A DNA stretch of 8,862 nucleotides, from the IMG/VR virus record IMGVR_UViG_2537562091_000008, positions 1-8,862 of that record. One strand, given 5' to 3'. The stretch's first letter is position 1, and each line of letters begins with the position of its first letter. The notes under the pieces are model-generated. The model was given only the letters and a program-made list of their open reading frames with translations. It was not told where the DNA came from and made no database searches. Positions 1 through 8,862 of the stretch are shown here, piece after piece. The DNA comes from a virus. Its lineage: Duplodnaviria > Heunggongvirae > Uroviricota > Caudoviricetes. The position numbers and the translations under genes were made by a program.

Positions 1-933
1 ATGGACAACGACAAAATTGATCAACACAGCGACGAAATTGAAGTTGAGAGCGAAGAAAAAGAGCGCGGCAAAAAAATAGAAATAGATGAAGACCGACTCC
101 CCTCCCGGGCGATGGCAATTCATGAGCATATCCGCCAGGATGGTGAAAAAGAGCTGGAACGCGACGCAATGGCGCTACTGTGGTCAGCCATTGCGGCGGG
201 TCTGTCGATGGGCGCTTCGTTACTGGCAAAAGGGATATTTCATGTCGAACTGGAAGGTGTGCCGGGCAGCTTCTTGCTGGAGAATCTCGGTTATACCTTT
301 GGTTTTATTATCGTCATTATGGCCCGCCAGCAATTATTTACCGAAAATACCGTGACTGCGGTACTACCCGTCATGCAAAAACCGACAATGAGCAACGTCG
401 GCTTACTTATACGGTTATGGGGCGTCGTGCTGCTGGGTAATATTCTCGGGACAGGTATTGCGGCGTGGGCATTTGAATATATGCCTATCTTCAATGAAGA
501 AACTCGCGATGCATTTGTCAAAATCGGCATGGATGTGATGAAGAACACCCCCAGCGAGATGTTTGCCAACGCGATCATTTCCGGCTGGCTGATCGCCACT
601 ATGGTTTGGATGTTTCCTGCAGCGGGTGCGGCAAAGATTGTGGTGATTATATTGATGACCTGGCTTATTGCCCTGGGTGACACCACCCATATCGTGGTCG
701 GTTCTGTTGAAATCCTCTATCTGGTGTTTAACGGTACGCTGCACTGGAGCGATTTCATCTGGCCCTTCGCACTACCTACTTTAGCGGGGAACATCTGCGG
801 CGGCACCTTTATCTTCGCGTTAATGAGTCATGCACAGATTCGTAACGACATGAGCAATAAGCGTAAAGCAGAAGCACGCCAAAAAGCAGAACGTGCGGAA
901 AACATTAAGAAAAATTATAAAAACCCGGCATAA
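1..933 (+). CDS. yfdC: Formate/nitrite transporter (FNT) family inner-membrane protein YfdC
   Basis: Complete 310-aa ORF, ATG at 1 to TAA at 931-933. Long hydrophobic segments typical of a polytopic membrane protein and a lysine-rich C-terminal tail. Sequence recognised from memory as E. coli YfdC, the gene immediately upstream of argW. Confidence 0.85.
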   Translation: MDNDKIDQHSDEIEVESEEKERGKKIEIDEDRLPSRAMAIHEHIRQDGEKELERDAMALLWSAIAAGLSMGASLLAKGIFHVELEGVPGSFLLENLGYTFGFIIVIMARQQLFTENTVTAVLPVMQKPTMSNVGLLIRLWGVVLLGNILGTGIAAWAFEYMPIFNEETRDAFVKIGMDVMKNTPSEMFANAIISGWLIATMVWMFPAAGAAKIVVIILMTWLIALGDTTHIVVGSVEILYLVFNGTLHWSDFIWPFALPTLAGNICGGTFIFALMSHAQIRNDMSNKRKAEARQKAERAENIKKNYKNPA

Positions 934-1008: not shown

Positions 1009-1083
1009 GTCCTCTTAGTTAAATGGATATAACGAGCCCCTCCTAAGGGCTAATTGCAGGTTCGATTCCTGCAGGGGACACCA
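1009..1083 (+). tRNA. argW: tRNA-Arg (anticodon CCU), argW
   Basis: 75-nt cloverleaf: acceptor stem GTCCTCT/AGGGGAC, anticodon stem AGCCC/GGGCT with loop CTCCTAA (anticodon CCT), T-arm GGTTCGATTCC, encoded 3' CCA at 1081-1083. Matches the argW sequence as I recall it. Confidence 0.9.
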
Positions 1084-1178: not shown

Positions 1179-1244
1179 TTGACAGCCGCACTCCATGACG
1201 GGTAAAAAGTGGATAAAATAATTTTACCCACCGGATTTTTACCC
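1179..1244 (+). promoter_or_regulatory. Candidate integrase promoter/operator: consensus -35 TTGACA (1179-1184) plus three copies of an 8-bp motif immediately upstream of the int start
   Basis: TTGACA at 1179-1184; possible -10 TAAAAA at 1203-1208 (18-nt spacer, weak). Perfect inverted repeat GGGTAAAA (1200-1207) / TTTTACCC (1222-1229) with a further direct copy TTTTACCC at 1237-1244 abutting the ATG at 1245. Confidence 0.3.
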
Positions 1245-2402
1245 ATGCTCACCGTTAAGCAGATTGAAGCAGCAAAGCCGAAAGAAAAACCATACCGCCT
1301 TCTCGATGGTAATGGCCTGTACCTTTATGTCCCTGTATCAGGGAAAAAGGTATGGCAGCTTCGCTACAAGATTGACGGTAAGGAGAAAATCCTGACCGTC
1401 GGAAAATATCCGCTTATGACTTTGCAGGAGGCAAGGGATAAAGCATGGACTGCGAGGAAAGACATCTCGGTTGGCATCGATCCGGTAAAAGCAAAAAAGG
1501 CTTCGTCTAACAACAATTCCTTTAGCGCCATTTACAAGGAATGGTACGAGCACAAGAAGCAAGTCTGGTCTGTAGGTTATGCTACTGAACTTGCCAGAAT
1601 GTTTGATGACGACATTTTACCTATCATCGGCGGCCTTGAAATTCAAGATATTGAGCCGATGCAACTGCTGGAAGTAATCCGCAGATTTGAAGAGCGCGGG
1701 GCAATGGAGAGAGCCAATAAAGCCCGCAGAAGATGCGGAGAGGTTTTCCGTTACGCTATTGTCACCGGCAGGGCTAAATATAACCCAGCACCTGACCTTG
1801 CTGACGCCATGAAGGGATACCGCAAGAAGAACTTCCCGTTTCTTCCTGCAGACCAGATCACGGCATTTAACAAAGCACTGGCAACATTTTCAGGAAGTAT
1901 CGTATCGCTCATTGCCACCAAGGTTTTACGCTACACAGCCCTAAGAACGAAAGAGCTTCGTTCCATGCTATGGAAGAACGTCGATTTTGAAAACAGGATT
2001 ATCACCATCGACGCCAGTGTGATGAAGGGCCGCAAGATTCATGTAGTGCCGATGTCAGACCAGGTGGTTGAACTTCTCACTACGCTAAGCTCAATCACCA
2101 AACCAGTATCAGAGTTTGTTTTTGCCGGGCGCAACGATAAGAAGAAGCCAATCTGCGAGAACGCGGTACTGCTTGTGATTAAACAAATCGGCTATGAAGG
2201 TCTGGAAAGCGGTCACGGATTCAGGCATGAATTCAGCACGATTATGAACGAGCACGAATGGCCTGCCGACGCCATTGAAGTGCAACTGGCACATGCCAAC
2301 GGCGGATCTGTGCGTGGGATTTACAACCATGCACAGTATCTCGATAAGCGCAGAGAAATGATGCAGTGGTGGGCAGATTGGATTGATGAAAAGGTGGAGT
2401 AA
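1245..2402 (+). CDS. intS: Prophage tyrosine integrase (CPS-53/KpLE1 IntS-like, P4-family)
   Basis: 385-aa product starting MLTVKQIEAAKPKEKPYRLLDGNGLYLYV, recognised as E. coli IntS. Tyrosine-recombinase catalytic region present (HGFRHEF ... RGIYNHAQY). Lies about 160 bp downstream of argW in the same orientation, as at the K-12 argW-intS locus. The six-frame ORF extends to a GTG at 1209 (12 extra residues); the ATG at 1245 is preferred on homology but has no obvious Shine-Dalgarno. Confidence 0.9.
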   Translation: MLTVKQIEAAKPKEKPYRLLDGNGLYLYVPVSGKKVWQLRYKIDGKEKILTVGKYPLMTLQEARDKAWTARKDISVGIDPVKAKKASSNNNSFSAIYKEWYEHKKQVWSVGYATELARMFDDDILPIIGGLEIQDIEPMQLLEVIRRFEERGAMERANKARRRCGEVFRYAIVTGRAKYNPAPDLADAMKGYRKKNFPFLPADQITAFNKALATFSGSIVSLIATKVLRYTALRTKELRSMLWKNVDFENRIITIDASVMKGRKIHVVPMSDQVVELLTTLSSITKPVSEFVFAGRNDKKKPICENAVLLVIKQIGYEGLESGHGFRHEFSTIMNEHEWPADAIEVQLAHANGGSVRGIYNHAQYLDKRREMMQWWADWIDEKVE

Positions 2403-2900: not shown

Positions 2901-3086
2901 TTAATCATTCTCCGTAACAGGTTCATTGTGAGCAGCATTTAGTACTCGCTGGAGTGGCTGGTCATTTTCGCGATCTAATTCAGCCTGTAATGTATTCATT
3001 GAAGAATTAAAAGCAGGAACTTCATGACCGCTAAGATTTACGCGAAGCATAAACTGCATGATATTTTGAATAGTTTGCTTATCCAT
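2901..3086 (-). CDS. Hypothetical small acidic protein (61 aa) immediately downstream of the tailspike gene
   Basis: ORF MDKQTIQNIMQFMLRVNLSGHEVPAFNSSMNTLQAELDRENDQPLQRVLNAAHNEPVTEND. Good Shine-Dalgarno (AGGA, 7-nt spacer) before the ATG at 3086-3084. Starts 12 nt after the tailspike stop, consistent with co-transcription. No family recognised. Confidence 0.5.
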   Translation of the reverse strand: MDKQTIQNIMQFMLRVNLSGHEVPAFNSSMNTLQAELDRENDQPLQRVLNAAHNEPVTEND

Positions 3087-3098
3087 TTTATTGTCCTG

Positions 3099-4535
3099 TT
3101 AAGTTAAACCAATTAATCCATGCCCGGTTGAAGCATGTAAGTCCTGAATTAATGCTGCAACCACCTTTGCTAAATCTTCGTGAGTTATTGTTCCAGAGTT
3201 AAATGCTGCTCGGGATACGGTGCCGGTTGGCGATCCCCATCCCGTCCTCCTCTCTGAAATAACTTGATTGCCATTAAGTCGTATTCTTAAGTTGTTGAAG
3301 TTAGCCCAGTTTTCAGCCCTGTTGAAACTCAAATGTGTTGTATTTGCCGGGCCCGTTCCTACCGTAATTCGTTGATTGTCGCCCATCAAAATTGCGCAGT
3401 TGTTTGAAAATCCAGCTTCAGAAAATGAAATTCCACTCCTAAAATAATTTGTTCTAAATCTAATGCCGTTTGCAGCTCTAGATGATAGAGATCCCTCAAG
3501 TCTGATGTATTCGCCATTACCTACCTCGGTTAGTTCCTCTGTTGGAGTGGAAATAGAATTACCTCTAAACAACATTCCTGTCCAGATATAACCATTTGGA
3601 GCTTCACTCCCTCTTCCGATGGTAATCATCTGTGTTACTGGATTGCTTTTATCCTGAGTTACACATACCAACCCTCTTACAGATCCTTGCAGTGTATTCT
3701 CCATCCATCCTTTATCGGGACCTCGATTATTCAGATTAAATTCATGTGCAATAGTGCTAATCGCTCCATTCTGCACTGCATCTCCTAATACGGCACCATA
3801 TGACCACCCCCCCCATGTTTCGGCTTGCGGATTTCTTGATTCTCCACGCATGTGGTGACCAATTGAATGCCCATTCCCGCCCTCATGCTTAGCAACACTT
3901 GTAGTTGTGCATGTATATGCACTTCCTGACACCTTGCGCAAAGAGTTATAAATTACCCCCTGATCCCATCGTTTGATGCCGTCATCCCTAGTTGCAGAAC
4001 TAATTTTTTCCAGCCAAATAATGGGATCTGGAATTGGTGTTTCTGGTATGGAGAATCTCTGTCGTGTAGCATTTTTATATATGATAGTTTCATTGTTATA
4101 AATATTGTCACCAGCTGCATCTGAACCAGTCCATCCTGAGCCAGCATAAAAATTATTAAGTCCATCACCAGACTGTCCAGTCAAAACTACTCTTAACTGA
4201 TCCGGGTCATACTTCAGCACATTCGGAAAATAGAACTGATGCGCACCGTACGCATCATAAACAGCCATAGAATGGCCTTGCACGGTAACGAACTTGGCAA
4301 TCTGTCCGTTATATACCGGATATCCAGCAGCGTTAATGATGATTGGTTGAGAAACAGGAATGTGAGAACCGTCTTCGTTCTCTACATAAACCTGAATCTG
4401 GTTTTCAGGGTTTACCGGGTCAGTGTCAATTTTACCGATATAAATTTTGCCATTGGCTACGGCTTTAAAAGAACGAGCCATAGTGAAGAGTTGCGAAGGC
4501 ATGCTTACCACAACATTTGCGGTGATATCTGACAT
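3099..4535 (-). CDS. Phage tailspike protein: P22 gp9-like head-binding N-terminal domain fused to a divergent receptor-binding domain
   Basis: N-terminal ~115 aa ([97 protein letters not shown]...NVLKYDPDQ) align closely with the P22 tailspike head-binding domain as I recall it; the remaining ~360 aa are unrelated to the P22 endorhamnosidase body. Start set at ATG 4535-4533 (GGAG 7 nt upstream) rather than the upstream ATG at 4583. Visibly AT-rich relative to neighbours. Confidence 0.85.
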
Positions 4536-4656
4536 TTCATTGCTCCAGACGAATGATATGATGCAACCATGATGTGATTGCATACCGAAATGGTACTATT
4601 GAGTATTTATCCAGTAGGTTACGATGCCATTCCACCCAACTGGTGAGGCATCAAGG
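4536..4656. promoter_or_regulatory. Divergent control region between the tailspike and mnt genes, with a candidate operator (inverted repeat ATGCAA-N11-TTGCAT, 4561-4583)
   Basis: 121-bp gap between divergent start codons. Inverted repeat read directly. A plausible plus-strand promoter for mnt (-35 TTGCAT 4578-4583, 17-nt spacer, -10 GAGTAT 4601-4606) overlaps the repeat. Contains a TAGGT motif (4614-4618) that resembles part of the P22 mnt operator half-site as I recall it. Confidence 0.3.
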
Positions 4657-4923
4657 ATGTACAGCAAATACGACGAGGCGCAGTTTCACTTGAGACTTCC
4701 GCATGAACTCCACGCGAAAATTAAGCAGCGTGCGAAGATGAATAACAGGTCGCTGAACTCAGAGATAATTGCAGCGATTGAAGAATCATTGGCTAAACAA
4801 AGCTCTGCATCTGTTTACATTGACGATGCAGAGCGTATGGCAGAACAACAATCTGAGATGGTTAAGAAAATTGTCTTTGATACGCTTAAGACCATGTATA
4901 GCAATAATAAAAAGGAAACATAG
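4657..4923 (+). CDS. mnt: Mnt-like ribbon-helix-helix transcriptional repressor (P22 immI-type)
   Basis: 88-aa product MYSKYDEAQFHLRLPHELHAKIKQRAKMNNRSLNSEIIAAIEESLAKQSSASVYIDDAERMAEQQSEMVKKIVFDTLKTMYSNNKKET, closely parallel to P22 Mnt as recalled (FNFRMPMEVREKLKFRAEANGRSMNSELLQIVQDALSK ... NDAERLADEQSELVKKMVFDTLK). Alternative upstream ATG at 4624 would add 11 residues. Confidence 0.8.
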   Translation: MYSKYDEAQFHLRLPHELHAKIKQRAKMNNRSLNSEIIAAIEESLAKQSSASVYIDDAERMAEQQSEMVKKIVFDTLKTMYSNNKKET

Positions 4924-4993
4924 AAATCTAGTTTCCGGCTAAAATGGCATTGCCTTCATGATATCCTGTGAAAAACTAAGGAGAGTTAACCAT

Positions 4994-5479
4994 ATGAAAA
5001 AATCACTGTTAATTATCCCGCTTCTGCTGGTTGGATGCGCAAAAGTAAGTGACTATCAAGCAAGTTGCGAACAACGCTATCAAAAGCTTAGCGATATGGC
5101 TAATTGCCTTGATGCCAGTGTGAAGAACGACTCACGCATGGCATCAGCACCAACACCTAAGCTGTATGTCCTTGCTGCAAAGATGCTCGGGCAAGGTGTC
5201 GATGAAGGCAAGATAAGTGACGCACAGGCAAGACTTGAGCTTCAGAATCTTTATGTTCAATTACAAAGCCAAGAACAAGCCCAACAAATAGCACAAAGCC
5301 AAGCATTCCAGCAGGCTTTATTGAATTATCAGGCTGTAAACACAATGCAAGCGATCGAGCAAAAAGCGCGCCAGCCTGTTATAACTCAACCTTACCCAAC
5401 ACGCGTTGACACTTACACAAACTGCAATTCAGGGTTTGGAAATACAGTCACATGCAACAGTAGCAGTAACATCAGATAA
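4994..5479 (+). CDS. Prophage-encoded lipoprotein (candidate superinfection-exclusion / lysogenic-conversion protein)
   Basis: ATG at 4994 preceded by AAGGAG (4978-4983). N-terminus MKKSLLIIPLLLVGC is a type II signal peptide with lipobox LVGC; the residue after Cys is Ala. Mature part has a Cys-rich N-terminal segment, a Gln-rich predicted helical segment (QNLYVQLQSQEQAQQIAQSQAFQQALLNYQAVNTMQAIEQKARQ) and a C-terminal Cys pair. Same strand as and 70 bp downstream of mnt. Confidence 0.65.
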   Translation: MKKSLLIIPLLLVGCAKVSDYQASCEQRYQKLSDMANCLDASVKNDSRMASAPTPKLYVLAAKMLGQGVDEGKISDAQARLELQNLYVQLQSQEQAQQIAQSQAFQQALLNYQAVNTMQAIEQKARQPVITQPYPTRVDTYTNCNSGFGNTVTCNSSSNIR

Positions 5480-5569
5480 CAATCAGCAAAGGTATCGCCT
5501 ATGCAGAGGAATACGATAAACCTCGCGTTCTACATATTTGGTTTTTGCACGTTCCTGGTGTTTGAAAGG

Positions 5570-7567
5570 CTATTCTGACAACGAATCAGACTTAGCACCC
5601 TGCGTCAGTGCATTAATCGCTTTTTGCGCTTGCTGCATGGCTTTCTCAAACGCTGTCGATCCGCGTGGTGTGTTTGCCATTCGGAGCATTGCATTTCTGA
5701 ATGGTTCGCTCTCATAGGCGCGAGTAAGAAGTCCGTAGCTTACCGCTGCGCCAGTTGTCGCCGGGTTCATTGCTGTCCCATACCCGATAATGAACGGGAT
5801 GGTTTGCTGCCCTGTTGGTGTTGTTACTGCCGCTTTTGCAGCCTGCTGCGTGGATTGCAGGTAGTTTTTCAATCCTTTCAGATAAGCAGCGTCCTGCCCC
5901 TTAAATGTGATGCCAGTCTGGTTTTGCAGGATGTTAAGCTGTCGAAGGAACTGATCAGGGGAACCCCCTGATTTCTCCATCGCCTTTCCAATGATGCCAT
6001 TGCGCATTTGCGCCCTGCCAACACGACCAACTGAGTTATACAGCGTCTTAATTTCCGATTTGTTCTTGCTGAATAGCATGTTGTTGACAACTTCCGGCGT
6101 CAGATCGCCTTTCATGAGAACATTCTTCAGCCTGGTATTCTTTAGTTTCGCCGCTTCGTCAGCGTAGACGGCATTGGCCTGCTGATATTTACGGAGAGTA
6201 TCGTTGCCAAGATTCTGACCAATGGCACCATTGATATCGTCTGTCATCGCCTTGTAAACGCGCTGAATGGCAGCATCGGAACGGTTTGGTAACACTGGTC
6301 GTTCCCCCTTCACGTCCATTCTGAACTGGCTGCGCAGATCGCTTAATTGCTTCAAATCCAGATTTACCGGACCATCAGGACTAGCATTGCGAACAAGCTC
6401 ATCACGATAGGACTGAAGTTTTGAAATAGTCTCGTTATCAGCAACCTTACCAAGCTTCTGCAGGTTAGATATTTCTGTATCAATCTGCTGAATTGCTCGC
6501 GCAGGCTGAATGTTTACTCCAGCCATAGCATTCTGAACCTGCTCCAGTCGATTACCGGCGGCACGACGAATTCCTGATGTTTTCGCTTTAAGGCTGTCAA
6601 TAACAACCGCTGGATCATACTCGCCGAATTTATCAGCAAATCTCTGCACCAACTGACTTCTCGCTTCCTGTTGCGTTGCTCTCATTCCGCTTGTGCCAGC
6701 CAGGGGAATATTTTCTGCTGTAGTCTGCGCCATTTTCCCGACGCGGGAAGTAGGCTGTAACAGGTCTGTGGTGTGCAGAGGCACTCCTTCACGCTCTGCA
6801 AATCTGATAGCTTGCTGCGCTTCTGGTGCAATAGCACCACGAACGCCACGATAAGCAGCGCCTAATCCACGTCCGGCAGCGTTAATAGCGCCGCCAGCCA
6901 GAACGCCAACGCCTAAATCGGTGGCGAGTGCTTCCGCATCATCTTTCGCACTATTTGCAGCAAGTGATCCAACTGCGTTTTCTGCTAGAAGGCGAGTTGC
7001 CCCCTGAGCAATTCGACCAGCAAGTGTTGGTGCCTGTGTTGCCGCTCTCTCAACGCCAGCAGGAGTGAGGTAAGGCAATGCTTCAGCAAATACCCTTCCC
7101 TCTGTCGTTTGTGGAGTCAGCGCGCCTTGCTGAAGGCCAAAGTCCTGCTCTAATCCCTGCGTTGTTACTCGTGGTGCTGGTTGATATGTACCATCGCCAA
7201 TGCCGAGTTTACCGCCAGCCCAAGCCGCCGCGCTTGTTACAGCATCAGCAACTGATGCAGGTATATTTGCCACGTTCACGCCAGCCTGCACCAGTCCGCG
7301 ACCAGTCTCTTTTACTGCTTCGCCAAGATCAGACATAAATCCACTTTGCTGTGGTTGTTGCTGTGCTACTGGTTGCTGTGTCTCCACTGGCTGTACAGAT
7401 GGCAATGGATAGGCAGCATAGAAAGCTTGCTTAGCCTGCTCTGCATTTTCTCCGGCTTGCGGGGCCACGACTTCATTGAAGTATTGCTCCTGAGCTTGCG
7501 CTTTTTGTTCTGGTGCTAACGCCTGATACTGTGGAGAGGCGATAACATCTTTCCATGCTTTAGCCAT
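5570..7567 (-). CDS. Phage ejection (internal virion / DNA-transfer) protein, P22 gp16-like by position
   Basis: 665-aa ORF, the last gene of the late operon before the immunity/tailspike region, which is where gene 16 sits in P22-like genomes. Start ATG overlaps the upstream gene's stop (TAATG at 7565-7569). Long Ala/Gly/Gln-rich low-complexity segments. Assignment is by synteny and composition, not by recalled sequence identity. Confidence 0.55.
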   Translation of the reverse strand: MAKAWKDVIASPQYQALAPEQKAQAQEQYFNEVVAPQAGENAEQAKQAFYAAYPLPSVQPVETQQPVAQQQPQQSGFMSDLGEAVKETGRGLVQAGVNVANIPASVADAVTSAAAWAGGKLGIGDGTYQPAPRVTTQGLEQDFGLQQGALTPQTTEGRVFAEALPYLTPAGVERAATQAPTLAGRIAQGATRLLAENAVGSLAANSAKDDAEALATDLGVGVLAGGAINAAGRGLGAAYRGVRGAIAPEAQQAIRFAEREGVPLHTTDLLQPTSRVGKMAQTTAENIPLAGTSGMRATQQEARSQLVQRFADKFGEYDPAVVIDSLKAKTSGIRRAAGNRLEQVQNAMAGVNIQPARAIQQIDTEISNLQKLGKVADNETISKLQSYRDELVRNASPDGPVNLDLKQLSDLRSQFRMDVKGERPVLPNRSDAAIQRVYKAMTDDINGAIGQNLGNDTLRKYQQANAVYADEAAKLKNTRLKNVLMKGDLTPEVVNNMLFSKNKSEIKTLYNSVGRVGRAQMRNGIIGKAMEKSGGSPDQFLRQLNILQNQTGITFKGQDAAYLKGLKNYLQSTQQAAKAAVTTPTGQQTIPFIIGYGTAMNPATTGAAVSYGLLTRAYESEPFRNAMLRMANTPRGSTAFEKAMQQAQKAINALTQGAKSDSLSE

Positions 7568-8862
7568 TAATCACCCCATAGTGAAGAAAAATTACTGCCA
7601 GTAGTAGGTTGTTGCGCTGGCGTATTCTGTACTGGCTCCTGATAATCAAACTGTTTTTTAACAGTGCTCAACTTGCTTTCAAGCTGATTTCTAATCTTTC
7701 CGATAGAGTCACGAAAAGCCTTTTCACTCATTTTGGGGCTTAGGGCACCAACCGCATCGGATAATTTTTTACCCTCAGCATCTGAAAGAGCACCCATACC
7801 CTTCAGGGACTGCACCATAGGAAGGAATGTTTGAGCTTTAAAGGTGTCGAGCCTTGCTTCAAAGTTAGCCGCATCAGAGCCAGGAACTGTCGGAAACGCT
7901 GAGCGAATTCCTACTGCTTTTGAAAGGCCGGGGCTTTGCTCTATCTCGTTGAGAGAATCAAGCGCGGTGCTGAACGTATCAACTGCACCCTGAGCTGCGG
8001 CCTGCCTGTCAGCGCGGGCTATGTCAGCCTTTTGCCGAACATCTGCCTGTTTCTGTTTTAGCTCTTCAAGCTTTAACTGATTGCTTTCTCTGGCTATCTG
8101 TCTGTCCAGAGCCTTTTCTTGTAACTCTGCTCTTTGTATTTCTCGGGAAAGAGCAGCATTCTGTGCGCTGATGTTCTGTCCACGTATCTGGATGTCCTGA
8201 CCTCGAGCTGTTAGTGCTTCACCTGCCTGATTGCTGCGGATTGTCTCTGCCAGCCTGCCTCTGTCAATTTCACGACCAGCCATCTTGTCCTGAACATTGA
8301 AGTAATCAATCGGACCAAGCGCAGCCATCCCAAGGTGATCAACAAACTCACCAAATCCTGAAGGATTCTGCTGATACATCTGAGCAACGTTGTTAGGGTC
8401 AACAGCGACGCGCGCCAGTTCCTTGGCGTTATTTTGCAGCCACGATTGCATTGCTTCTGGAGATGAGGCCGCAAGGCGTGCGCCAGCCGCTAAGGTGCCG
8501 ATAGAATTACGCTGGTCTTCATCAATGAATCCCATGCCTTTACGAACGGATTCAATCTGGTCTGGATATTGAGTAGCCAACTGACGCAAAGCACCGCGAT
8601 CACCAGACGCATAAGCATTAGCGTACGCCTGCTGGAATTCTTTCTTCCGCTGAGCCTGCTTCTCCTGCTGAAACACCCCCGCAATACCTGAAAGGCCTTG
8701 CAAAGCAGTCAGCCCAACATTGTTAGCGCCTGAACGCTCAATATCATTGTTCTGCCTGATAAGCTGAAGCGTGTTGCCGATGTCATTTACGCTCGGAGCG
8801 TTTGAGTTGACACCACCGATACCAGCCAACAATCCGCCATTTGTTCCTTGCCAAGTAGCCAT
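7567..8862 (-). CDS. Phage ejection protein, P22 gp20-like by position (start coincides with window edge; may be 5'-truncated)
   Basis: 431-aa ORF beginning MATWQGTNGG exactly at the window boundary, immediately upstream of and coupled to the gp16-like gene. Contains a charged predicted coiled-coil segment (AQNAALSREIQRAELQEKALDRQIARESNQLKLEELKQKQADVRQKADIARADRQ). Confidence 0.5.
   Translation of the reverse strand: MATWQGTNGGLLAGIGGVNSNAPSVNDIGNTLQLIRQNNDIERSGANNVGLTALQGLSGIAGVFQQEKQAQRKKEFQQAYANAYASGDRGALRQLATQYPDQIESVRKGMGFIDEDQRNSIGTLAAGARLAASSPEAMQSWLQNNAKELARVAVDPNNVAQMYQQNPSGFGEFVDHLGMAALGPIDYFNVQDKMAGREIDRGRLAETIRSNQAGEALTARGQDIQIRGQNISAQNAALSREIQRAELQEKALDRQIARESNQLKLEELKQKQADVRQKADIARADRQAAAQGAVDTFSTALDSLNEIEQSPGLSKAVGIRSAFPTVPGSDAANFEARLDTFKAQTFLPMVQSLKGMGALSDAEGKKLSDAVGALSPKMSEKAFRDSIGKIRNQLESKLSTVKKQFDYQEPVQNTPAQQPTTGSNFSSLWGD

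Follow-up and report, generated by a model that had tools for sequence, protein, structure and literature searches.

We asked what is encoded by a small gene that stands, in an E. coli prophage, at the place where phage P22 carries sieA. The gene lies in a stretch of DNA of 8,862 nucleotides, which we call the window. A first-pass annotation of this stretch had placed the gene in the sieA position, oriented with mnt on the strand expressed in lysogens, and had described its product as a lipoprotein with an LVGC lipobox that could not be recognized as Cor, Llp or SieA. It also proposed a lipoprotein signal prediction and a homology or structure search, both of which were carried out here. As described below, each of these descriptions was borne out, and the remaining question was that of function.

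The window covers one end of a prophage of the P22-like (Lederbergvirus) type (Table 1). The tRNA-Arg(CCT) gene between yfdC and the P4-type integrase represents the argW attachment site, and the integrase adjoins the tailspike end of the prophage. In agreement with the orientation given in the first-pass annotation, the lipoprotein gene and mnt are both on the plus strand, and the genes for the tailspike and the gp16-like and gp20-like proteins are all on the minus strand. The gp16-like protein is 33.5% identical to P22 gp16, and homologues of the gp20-like protein bear the Pfam Inj_translocase domain.

The tailspike is short, with 479 amino acids counted from the conserved start, and its N-terminal domain is 72% identical to that of P22 gp9. 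The C-terminal 349 residues had no match in any compared P22-like locus, and the Pfam and PHROG matches were confined to the N-terminal head-binding domain, so that the receptor-binding part looks like an orphan. The 61-residue ORF next to the tailspike gene occupies the place where P22 has gtrABC; it had no family match in Pfam, PHROGs or PADLOC. On the other side of the tailspike gene, across a divergent gap of ≈118 nt, lies mnt, whose product is 49% identical to P22 Mnt and is annotated in RefSeq in an 88-residue form. None of the genes arc, ant, sieA, gtr and oac was found in the window, and the O-antigen modification genes (gtr, oac) are thus absent from this end of the prophage. Since mnt is present without arc or ant, Mnt has no antirepressor gene to control here. 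The RNA hairpin that spans the mnt stop codon was not called by the terminator search.

Table 1. Features of the window, with positions counted from its first nucleotide.
Feature	Position	Strand	Remarks
Host gene yfdC	1–933		
tRNA-Arg(CCT)	1009–1083	+	
Integrase, P4-type	1209–2402		
61-aa ORF	2901–3086	−	Begins 13 nt past the tailspike stop
Tailspike gene, P22 gene 9 position	3099–4538	−	Pfam Head_binding domain, 2e-66; divergent from mnt
mnt repressor gene	4657–4923	+	Pfam Arc 1e-14, Repressor_Mnt 7.9e-14; 70 nt upstream of the lipoprotein gene
Hairpin GGAAAC...GUUUCC	4914–4936	+	RNA fold z −2.1; spans the mnt stop codon; no U-run after
Leader homologous to the P22 sieA leader	4955–4983	+	Includes Shine-Dalgarno AAGGAG, 4978–4983
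Lipoprotein gene	4994–5479	+	161 aa plus stop; PHROG 6067, annotated function 'unknown'
Signal peptide with lipobox L-V-G-C (predicted)	4994–5038	+	Cys15 codon 5036–5038; Ala at +2
Helical N-terminal domain, residues 16–98 (predicted)	5039–5287	+	Model pLDDT 95–98
Gln-rich helix extension (to residue 125) and Pro-rich linker 126–138 (predicted)	5288–5407	+	
C-terminal beta-hairpin, residues 139–159 (predicted)	5408–5470	+	Strands 139–146 and 152–159; pLDDT ≈65
Spacer separating the stop codons of the lipoprotein gene and the gp16-like gene, which converge	5480–5569		90 nt; fold z −0.93
gp16-like ejection (DNA transfer) protein gene	5570–7567	−	PHROG 770 'DNA transfer protein', 1.7e-239; convergent with the lipoprotein gene
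gp20-like ejection protein gene	7567–8862	−	50% identity to P22 gene 20 over 239 aa

The sieA slot and its lipoprotein gene

The lipoprotein ORF begins at the ATG at 4994, 10 nt after the AAGGAG of its leader, and ends with the TAA at 5477–5479. A longer ORF starting from the ATG at 4958 was rejected: homologues from seven genera all begin with M-K-K/R, so the upstream start, which is not conserved, is not that of the gene. PHROG 6067 covers residues 1–161 end to end (E 1.6e-110). We found 94 close homologues of 153–162 residues, and the EC01307 copy, annotated as WP_000749291, is 100% identical to the window protein.

When the gene was compared with its copy in phage Gally, the dN/dS ratio was 0.07. 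Between genera, dS was saturated and dN ranged from 0.13 to 0.44. The N-terminal domain was the slowest-evolving part in four of the five between-genus comparisons, with dN of 0.075–0.22 versus 0.15–0.56 for the C-terminal part in the comparisons with Serratia, Klebsiella, Yersinia and Morganella; against Proteus, the two were about equal (0.42 and 0.45, respectively). Across genera, identity was 60–84% for the lipoprotein, 32–43% for gp16 (partial alignments) and 45–59% for Mnt. Judged by this pattern of substitution, the lipoprotein ORF is a real gene under purifying selection.

The annotated record of P22 shows gene 16 and sieA converging, with orf59a and mnt next after sieA and on its strand. 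The P22 sieA gene has its own promoter, downstream of mnt, orf59a and a terminator. The window matches this record in having its gp16-like gene convergent with the lipoprotein gene and in keeping part of the sieA leader: the last 29 nt are retained, with 86% identity to the P22 sequence just upstream of sieA (pairwise E 2.7e-4). The annotated sieA −35 region is absent from the window.

For a wider comparison, 80 IMG/VR contigs bearing the lipoprotein gene were collected, giving 79 loci with enough upstream DNA. In four of them (L063, L089, L034 and L094), the DNA upstream of the lipoprotein gene is 91–98% identical to the DNA upstream of sieA in P22. In L063 and L089, the identity begins with mnt, and in L034 and L094, it begins late in this gene; in all four, it extends across orf59a, the terminator and the annotated promoter of sieA and ends 11 nt before the lipoprotein ATG, a point that lies 7 nt before the sieA start in P22. 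This near identity, which stops just short of the start codon, indicates that the lipoprotein ORF has taken the place of the sieA ORF, with the promoter and ribosome-binding site of sieA left in front of it. In ≈62 of the 79 loci, the leader motif of sieA, TCCTG..AAAACTAAGGAG, was kept. Both presence and absence of the gene were observed, as were at least four upstream arrangements: the type found in the window, with the mnt stop, 70 nt and then the gene (39 of the 79 loci); the P22 sieA promoter (16 loci); the type found in Gally, with an opposite-strand gene upstream (9 loci); and other kinds (15 loci).

A search of 88 lipoprotein loci for SieA matches by tblastn, or for ORFs on the mnt strand with multiple transmembrane segments, yielded none, so that the lipoprotein gene and sieA look like alternatives to each other. 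At the level of sequence, these comparisons show the lipoprotein ORF to be an alternative cassette to sieA in P22-like prophages. Variable cargo is expected in this region, and the cassette swap is a clean one. The slot, also called the 'ant moron', is known to carry varied cargo with non-identical functions (PMC2629481), which makes position alone weak evidence of what the lipoprotein does.

The gene was found in 186 of 5426 complete E. coli genomes (3.4%), always on the chromosome, and the carriers include O104:H4 C227-11, O26 strains and the AIEC strain LF82. At this frequency, it could well have an effect on phage typing, phage therapy and transduction. Among 50,697 phage records, five carry the gene: Gally, vB_EcoP-720R6, the Salmonella phages VSe13 and 'MS2 LVA', and Proteus Brookers. 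Copies in P22-like prophages also occur in Serratia, Yersinia, Morganella and Klebsiella aerogenes, which brings the distribution to at least seven enterobacterial genera overall. The gene is always convergent with a gp16 homologue and lies between that gene and the tailspike, a position shared by the copies in E. coli, Salmonella, Proteus, Serratia, Yersinia, Morganella and K. aerogenes. The neighbors differ: some loci have mnt and others lack it, the opposite strand may carry a Bro-N antirepressor-like gene or GALLYPH_14 (described below), and the gp16 partner may have 665, 728, 774 or 906 residues.

Another possible explanation is that the transcript matters more than the protein. Transcription of mnt and the lipoprotein gene in the lysogen could run into the gp16 gene, because the 90-nt spacer that separates the two genes was not found to contain an intrinsic terminator, and the resulting RNA would be antisense to the late mRNA of an incoming or resident phage. 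In prophage BTP1, this slot yields the antisense RNA STnc6030, which overlaps the injection gene at its 3′ end and makes for complete immunity to BTP1 (PMC7067206). Against such an explanation, the dN/dS value shows strong purifying selection on the protein, the lipobox and four Cys residues are kept across genera despite saturated synonymous sites, and the cassette sits beside gp16 types that are very different from each other. We consider it improbable that the transcript is what matters; in light of the selection at the protein level and the varied gp16 partners, any antisense effect would be an add-on and not the reason why the ORF is conserved.

Lipoprotein signal, predicted fold and relatives

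As criteria for a lipoprotein, we used N-terminal basic residues, a hydrophobic core, the motif [LVI][ASTVI][GAS]C and a Cys within the first ≈15–35 residues. The N-terminal sequence MKKSLLIIPLLLVGC passed this rule, which resembles PROSITE PS51257, with Lys at positions 2 and 3, hydrophobic residues at 4–13 and L-V-G-C ending at Cys15. The signal peptide up to the lipidation Cys is MKKSLLIIPLLLVG, and Ala comes next, at position +2. A lipobox was present in 229 of the 259 family proteins that were fetched. Across the family, the +2 residue was Ala in 180, Thr in 17, Val in 11 and Ser in 9; it was never Asp. An Asp at +2 is the signal for retention in the inner membrane in Enterobacteria, and its absence was the criterion for sorting to the outer membrane by the Lol pathway. 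By this criterion, the lipoprotein is predicted to sort to the outer membrane. The mature part contained no hydrophobic segment or membrane helix (best KD19 score 0.47).

The first-pass annotation had described a Cys-rich N-terminus, a Gln-rich helical middle and a C-terminus containing Cys, and this description agrees with the composition of the protein: Cys residues are found at positions 15, 25, 38, 144 and 154, and 15 of the 45 residues within 84–128 are Gln. An AlphaFold model made from close homologues only had a pLDDT of 63.5, and a deeper alignment of 101 diverse sequences raised the mean pLDDT to 86.9. In this model, helices 18–28, 32–45, 47–51 and 53–70 pack against the start of a 50-residue helix (76–125), and Cys25 and Cys38, which are invariant in the 101 sequences, are placed on neighboring helices. 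In the predicted hairpin, the motif T-x-C-x3-G-x3-4-C places Cys144 and Cys154 on opposite strands; both are at least 90% conserved in the 101 sequences, and the motif is retained in distant relatives. Going by the model, the pairs Cys25–Cys38 and Cys144–Cys154 probably form two periplasmic disulfides. The Gln-rich extension and linker are shortened or missing in distant relatives of 125–140 residues.

The proposed homology and structure searches led to the family PHROG 6067 and to no relative with an assigned function. When the protein and 60 family members were scanned against Pfam, NCBIfam and PADLOC, no functional family emerged, with zero PADLOC families at E ≤ 1. Sequence searches of the PDB, either with the single protein or with a profile of the 101 sequences, returned nothing significant, and Foldseek searches against BFVD and the PDB returned nothing at E ≤ 0.001. 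The literature that was searched contained no experiment on any family member and no mention of the protein accession or of a lipoprotein in the sieA slot. A match to the NCBIfam GspK family was rejected, as its score of 18.9 bits was far from the cut-off of 130 and was noise from the Gln-rich helix. The homologue from Cronobacter dublinensis (P0023) is publicly named 'general secretion pathway protein GspK'; given this score and its origin in the Gln-rich helix, the name is an annotation error.

An exhaustive profile search produced 246 cluster representatives at E ≤ 0.001, nearly all of them metagenomic and none of them named. Most are lipoproteins of 125–140 residues with the same N-terminal domain, a T-x-C-x3-G-x3-C hairpin and a shorter spacer. 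A distant relative of 295 residues (P0229) has the N-terminal Cys-Cys helical domain twice in tandem, followed by a single C-terminal hairpin. One distant relative is chromosomal, with uvrC, UDG, EarP and bio genes as neighbors, and this ordinary neighborhood hints at a general role in the envelope rather than one specific to phages. Another distant relative (locus L009) directly adjoins the gene for a polyvalent protein of 4839 residues (590–10589, minus strand; ddrB-ParB, Eco57I, helicase and MuF_C), which is typical of conjugative or phage mobile elements. A further relative on a mobile element is accompanied by an integrase, DnaB and an LPD37-domain gene. The other readable relatives were on uninformative metagenome contigs, and taken together, these mixed contexts offered no clue to function.

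Transcription of the gene in the lysogen

The claim that the gene is on the lysogen-expressed strand could be compared with transcription data for E. coli LF82, whose prophage Gally encodes a protein, GALLYPH_13, 97.5% identical to the window protein. GALLYPH_13 had 70 normalized reads in LB stationary phase, versus a prophage median of 15.6 (PMC9928086, tables S1/S4), and the neighboring gp16 and gp20 genes of Gally had ≈14 normalized reads in LB (PMC9928086). From the published tables, we calculated that GALLYPH_13 was 4.5-fold over the prophage background. The authors of that study used a 5-fold cut-off for morons and described Gally as being without them (PMC9928086); GALLYPH_13 was left unscored because 4.5-fold falls just under this cut-off. 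In the Gally arrangement, as distinct from that of the window, the gene has the expression expected of a moron, being transcribed while the flanking lytic genes are silent.

Gally also has, between mnt and the lipoprotein gene, a hypothetical gene on the late strand that encodes 139 residues (GALLYPH_14; L001 5447–5866, minus strand). It is the top transcribed gene of its region in LF82 (log2 ≈10–11 outside LB stationary phase), is absent from the window and was found in ≈10 IMG/VR loci. Since the DNA upstream of the lipoprotein gene in Gally differs from that in the window, we infer rather than read off how an arrangement like that of the window is expressed. Between mnt and the lipoprotein gene, a sigma-70 promoter was looked for and rejected, as nothing scored above the chance rate. 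Transcription in the window-type arrangement most likely occurs by read-through from the mnt promoter.

The data from LF82 also bear on a role in the lytic cycle, either in lysis, as a spanin-like protein, or as an accessory protein in virion assembly. The outer-membrane subunits of spanins are likewise small lipoproteins, and the gene adjoins virion genes. However, it is on the strand opposite to the late operon, has its strand and leader in common with mnt and sieA, and is transcribed in a lysogen whose late genes are silent. Moreover, the protein had no PHROG match to spanins or structural families, and the gene is absent from most P22-like phages (5 of 50,697 phage records carry it). The spanin or lysis role was rejected because of the strand and the expression in the lysogen, and any function in the lytic cycle appears very improbable.

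In LB, the log2(fpkm+5) value of GALLYPH_13 was ≈6.1, and it was 7.9–8.2 in other conditions (PMC9928086). After entry into macrophages, it reached 10.3 at 1 h and 8.6 at 6 h (log2FC 2.55, q 4.7e-27; PMC9928086). Such a rise would be expected if the gene were a moron for host fitness or virulence, modeled on lambda Bor and plasmid TraT, in which case the outer-membrane lipoprotein would alter the envelope (serum or stress resistance, adhesion, host survival) and would have no anti-phage role. The presence of the gene in pathogenic lineages (AIEC LF82, O104:H4 C227-11, O26) and the chromosomal copy among the distant relatives are consistent with this possibility, and the conservation of the N-terminal domain across genera would suit a conserved target in the host. 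However, all five genes at that end of Gally, including the tailspike, rise together in macrophages (PMC9928086), so the induction is regional and not specific to the lipoprotein gene. Furthermore, deletion of the whole of Gally left the viability of LF82 in macrophages unchanged (PMC9928086), no similarity to the Bor, TraT or Lom families was found in Pfam or PHROGs, and the precise swap with sieA would be left unexplained. We consider a host-fitness function unlikely, if less so than the alternatives based on the transcript or the lytic cycle. If the protein were a host-adaptation factor, its strong induction in macrophages would be relevant to the biology of AIEC.

A candidate exclusion factor and its counterparts

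The best-supported reading is that the gene represents an uncharacterized lipoprotein family that is a candidate for phage exclusion. From its position and cell compartment only, we tentatively propose that the lipoprotein is a superinfection-exclusion factor acting at the level of the envelope, in line with the suggestion of the first-pass annotation that it could block the delivery of DNA by incoming phages or modify a surface receptor, and would give this proposal a little less than an even chance. Exclusion is favored by the ORF-for-ORF swap with SieA, the one known blocker of podovirus injection, and by BTP1, in which the same slot gives an RNA-based exclusion function (PMC7067206). It is also favored by the SieA model, according to which gp7, gp20 and gp16 must assemble at the periplasmic face of the outer membrane (PMC10883804). 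The precedent of Llp and Cor, together with the lack of O-antigen-modifying genes at this end of the prophage, points in the same direction.

According to this proposal, the prophage would express the lipoprotein during lysogeny, and the product would be exported by Sec and lipidated at Cys15 by Lgt, LspA and Lnt. Because the +2 residue is Ala and not Asp, the Lol system would then be expected to deliver it to the inner leaflet of the outer membrane. In the model, the mature protein would consist of a compact four-helix domain, probably pinned by the Cys25–Cys38 disulfide, a Gln-rich helix and linker that may serve as a spacer of variable length, and a small terminal hairpin, probably clamped by the Cys144–Cys154 disulfide. 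From the periplasmic side of the outer membrane, the lipoprotein would stop incoming P22-like phages from assembling the gp7/gp20/gp16 conduit for DNA delivery. Alternatively, by analogy with the action of Llp and Cor on FhuA, it might inactivate a component of the outer membrane that incoming phages need.

A more ambitious version of the exclusion hypothesis is that the protein is the first member of a class of exclusion factors that would be new, namely periplasmic lipoproteins anchored in the outer membrane, with a fold unseen in solved structures, that act from the outer-membrane side to block either the conduit through which P22-like podoviruses eject their DNA or a factor in the host outer membrane that these phages need; we regard this as rather doubtful. 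If it were true, the 246 distant representatives, on chromosomes and mobile elements, would mark a wider, as yet unrecognized family of lipoproteins that guard the envelope. If the lipoprotein does exclude phages, this would show how an outer-membrane or periplasmic block to DNA delivery by podoviruses can work, and would open a way to study the gp7/gp20/gp16 conduit, which is poorly understood, or the host partners of this conduit.

Among annotated families, the window protein is a full-length member of PHROG 6067 and corresponds to RefSeq WP_000749291, which is called 'hypothetical protein' or sometimes 'lipoprotein'. Among characterized proteins, Llp of phage T5 and Cor of phages phi80, N15 and HK022 are outer-membrane lipoproteins with conserved Cys residues that inactivate FhuA from its periplasmic face. 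They have ≈60–80 residues, and Llp is not helical. The window protein is likewise small, phage-encoded and predicted to be an outer-membrane lipoprotein with conserved Cys, but differs from them in its modeled four-helix domain, long helix and hairpin. Moreover, Llp and Cor come from siphoviruses that use FhuA, whereas the window lipoprotein is found only in P22-like podovirus prophages. The best match of the family profile among PDB sequences was T5 Llp (8a60_B, E 0.051, residues 1–30), and a weak PHROG match was to Cor (PHROG 1119, E 0.035, residues 1–31). Neither match was significant, and no similarity to Cor or Llp extended past the signal peptide and some 15 residues at the start of the mature protein (C-x9-C-E), consistent with the first-pass annotation.

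STnc6030 of BTP1 confers exclusion (PMC7067206) and, like the lipoprotein, is a product of the slot between the last ejection gene and the tailspike, expressed by the prophage from the antisense strand. STnc6030, however, works by base pairing and does not encode a protein, whereas the slot in the window holds a conserved protein-coding gene under purifying selection.

P22 SieA, which blocks the conduit formed by the E-proteins (PMC10883804), shares with the lipoprotein its slot, strand and leader and, in some prophages, its promoter. The two are similar in size (164 and 161 residues, respectively), and both are envelope proteins with modest expression from the prophage, as measured on the Gally copy in the case of the lipoprotein. 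Homology between them was rejected in favor of positional equivalence only: BLASTP against P22 SieA, with type A as the only query, gave no alignment at E ≤ 100. [quoted passage not shown] If the exclusion hypothesis is true, the lipoprotein would be the outer-membrane counterpart of the inner-membrane SieA, with one replaced by the other ORF for ORF.
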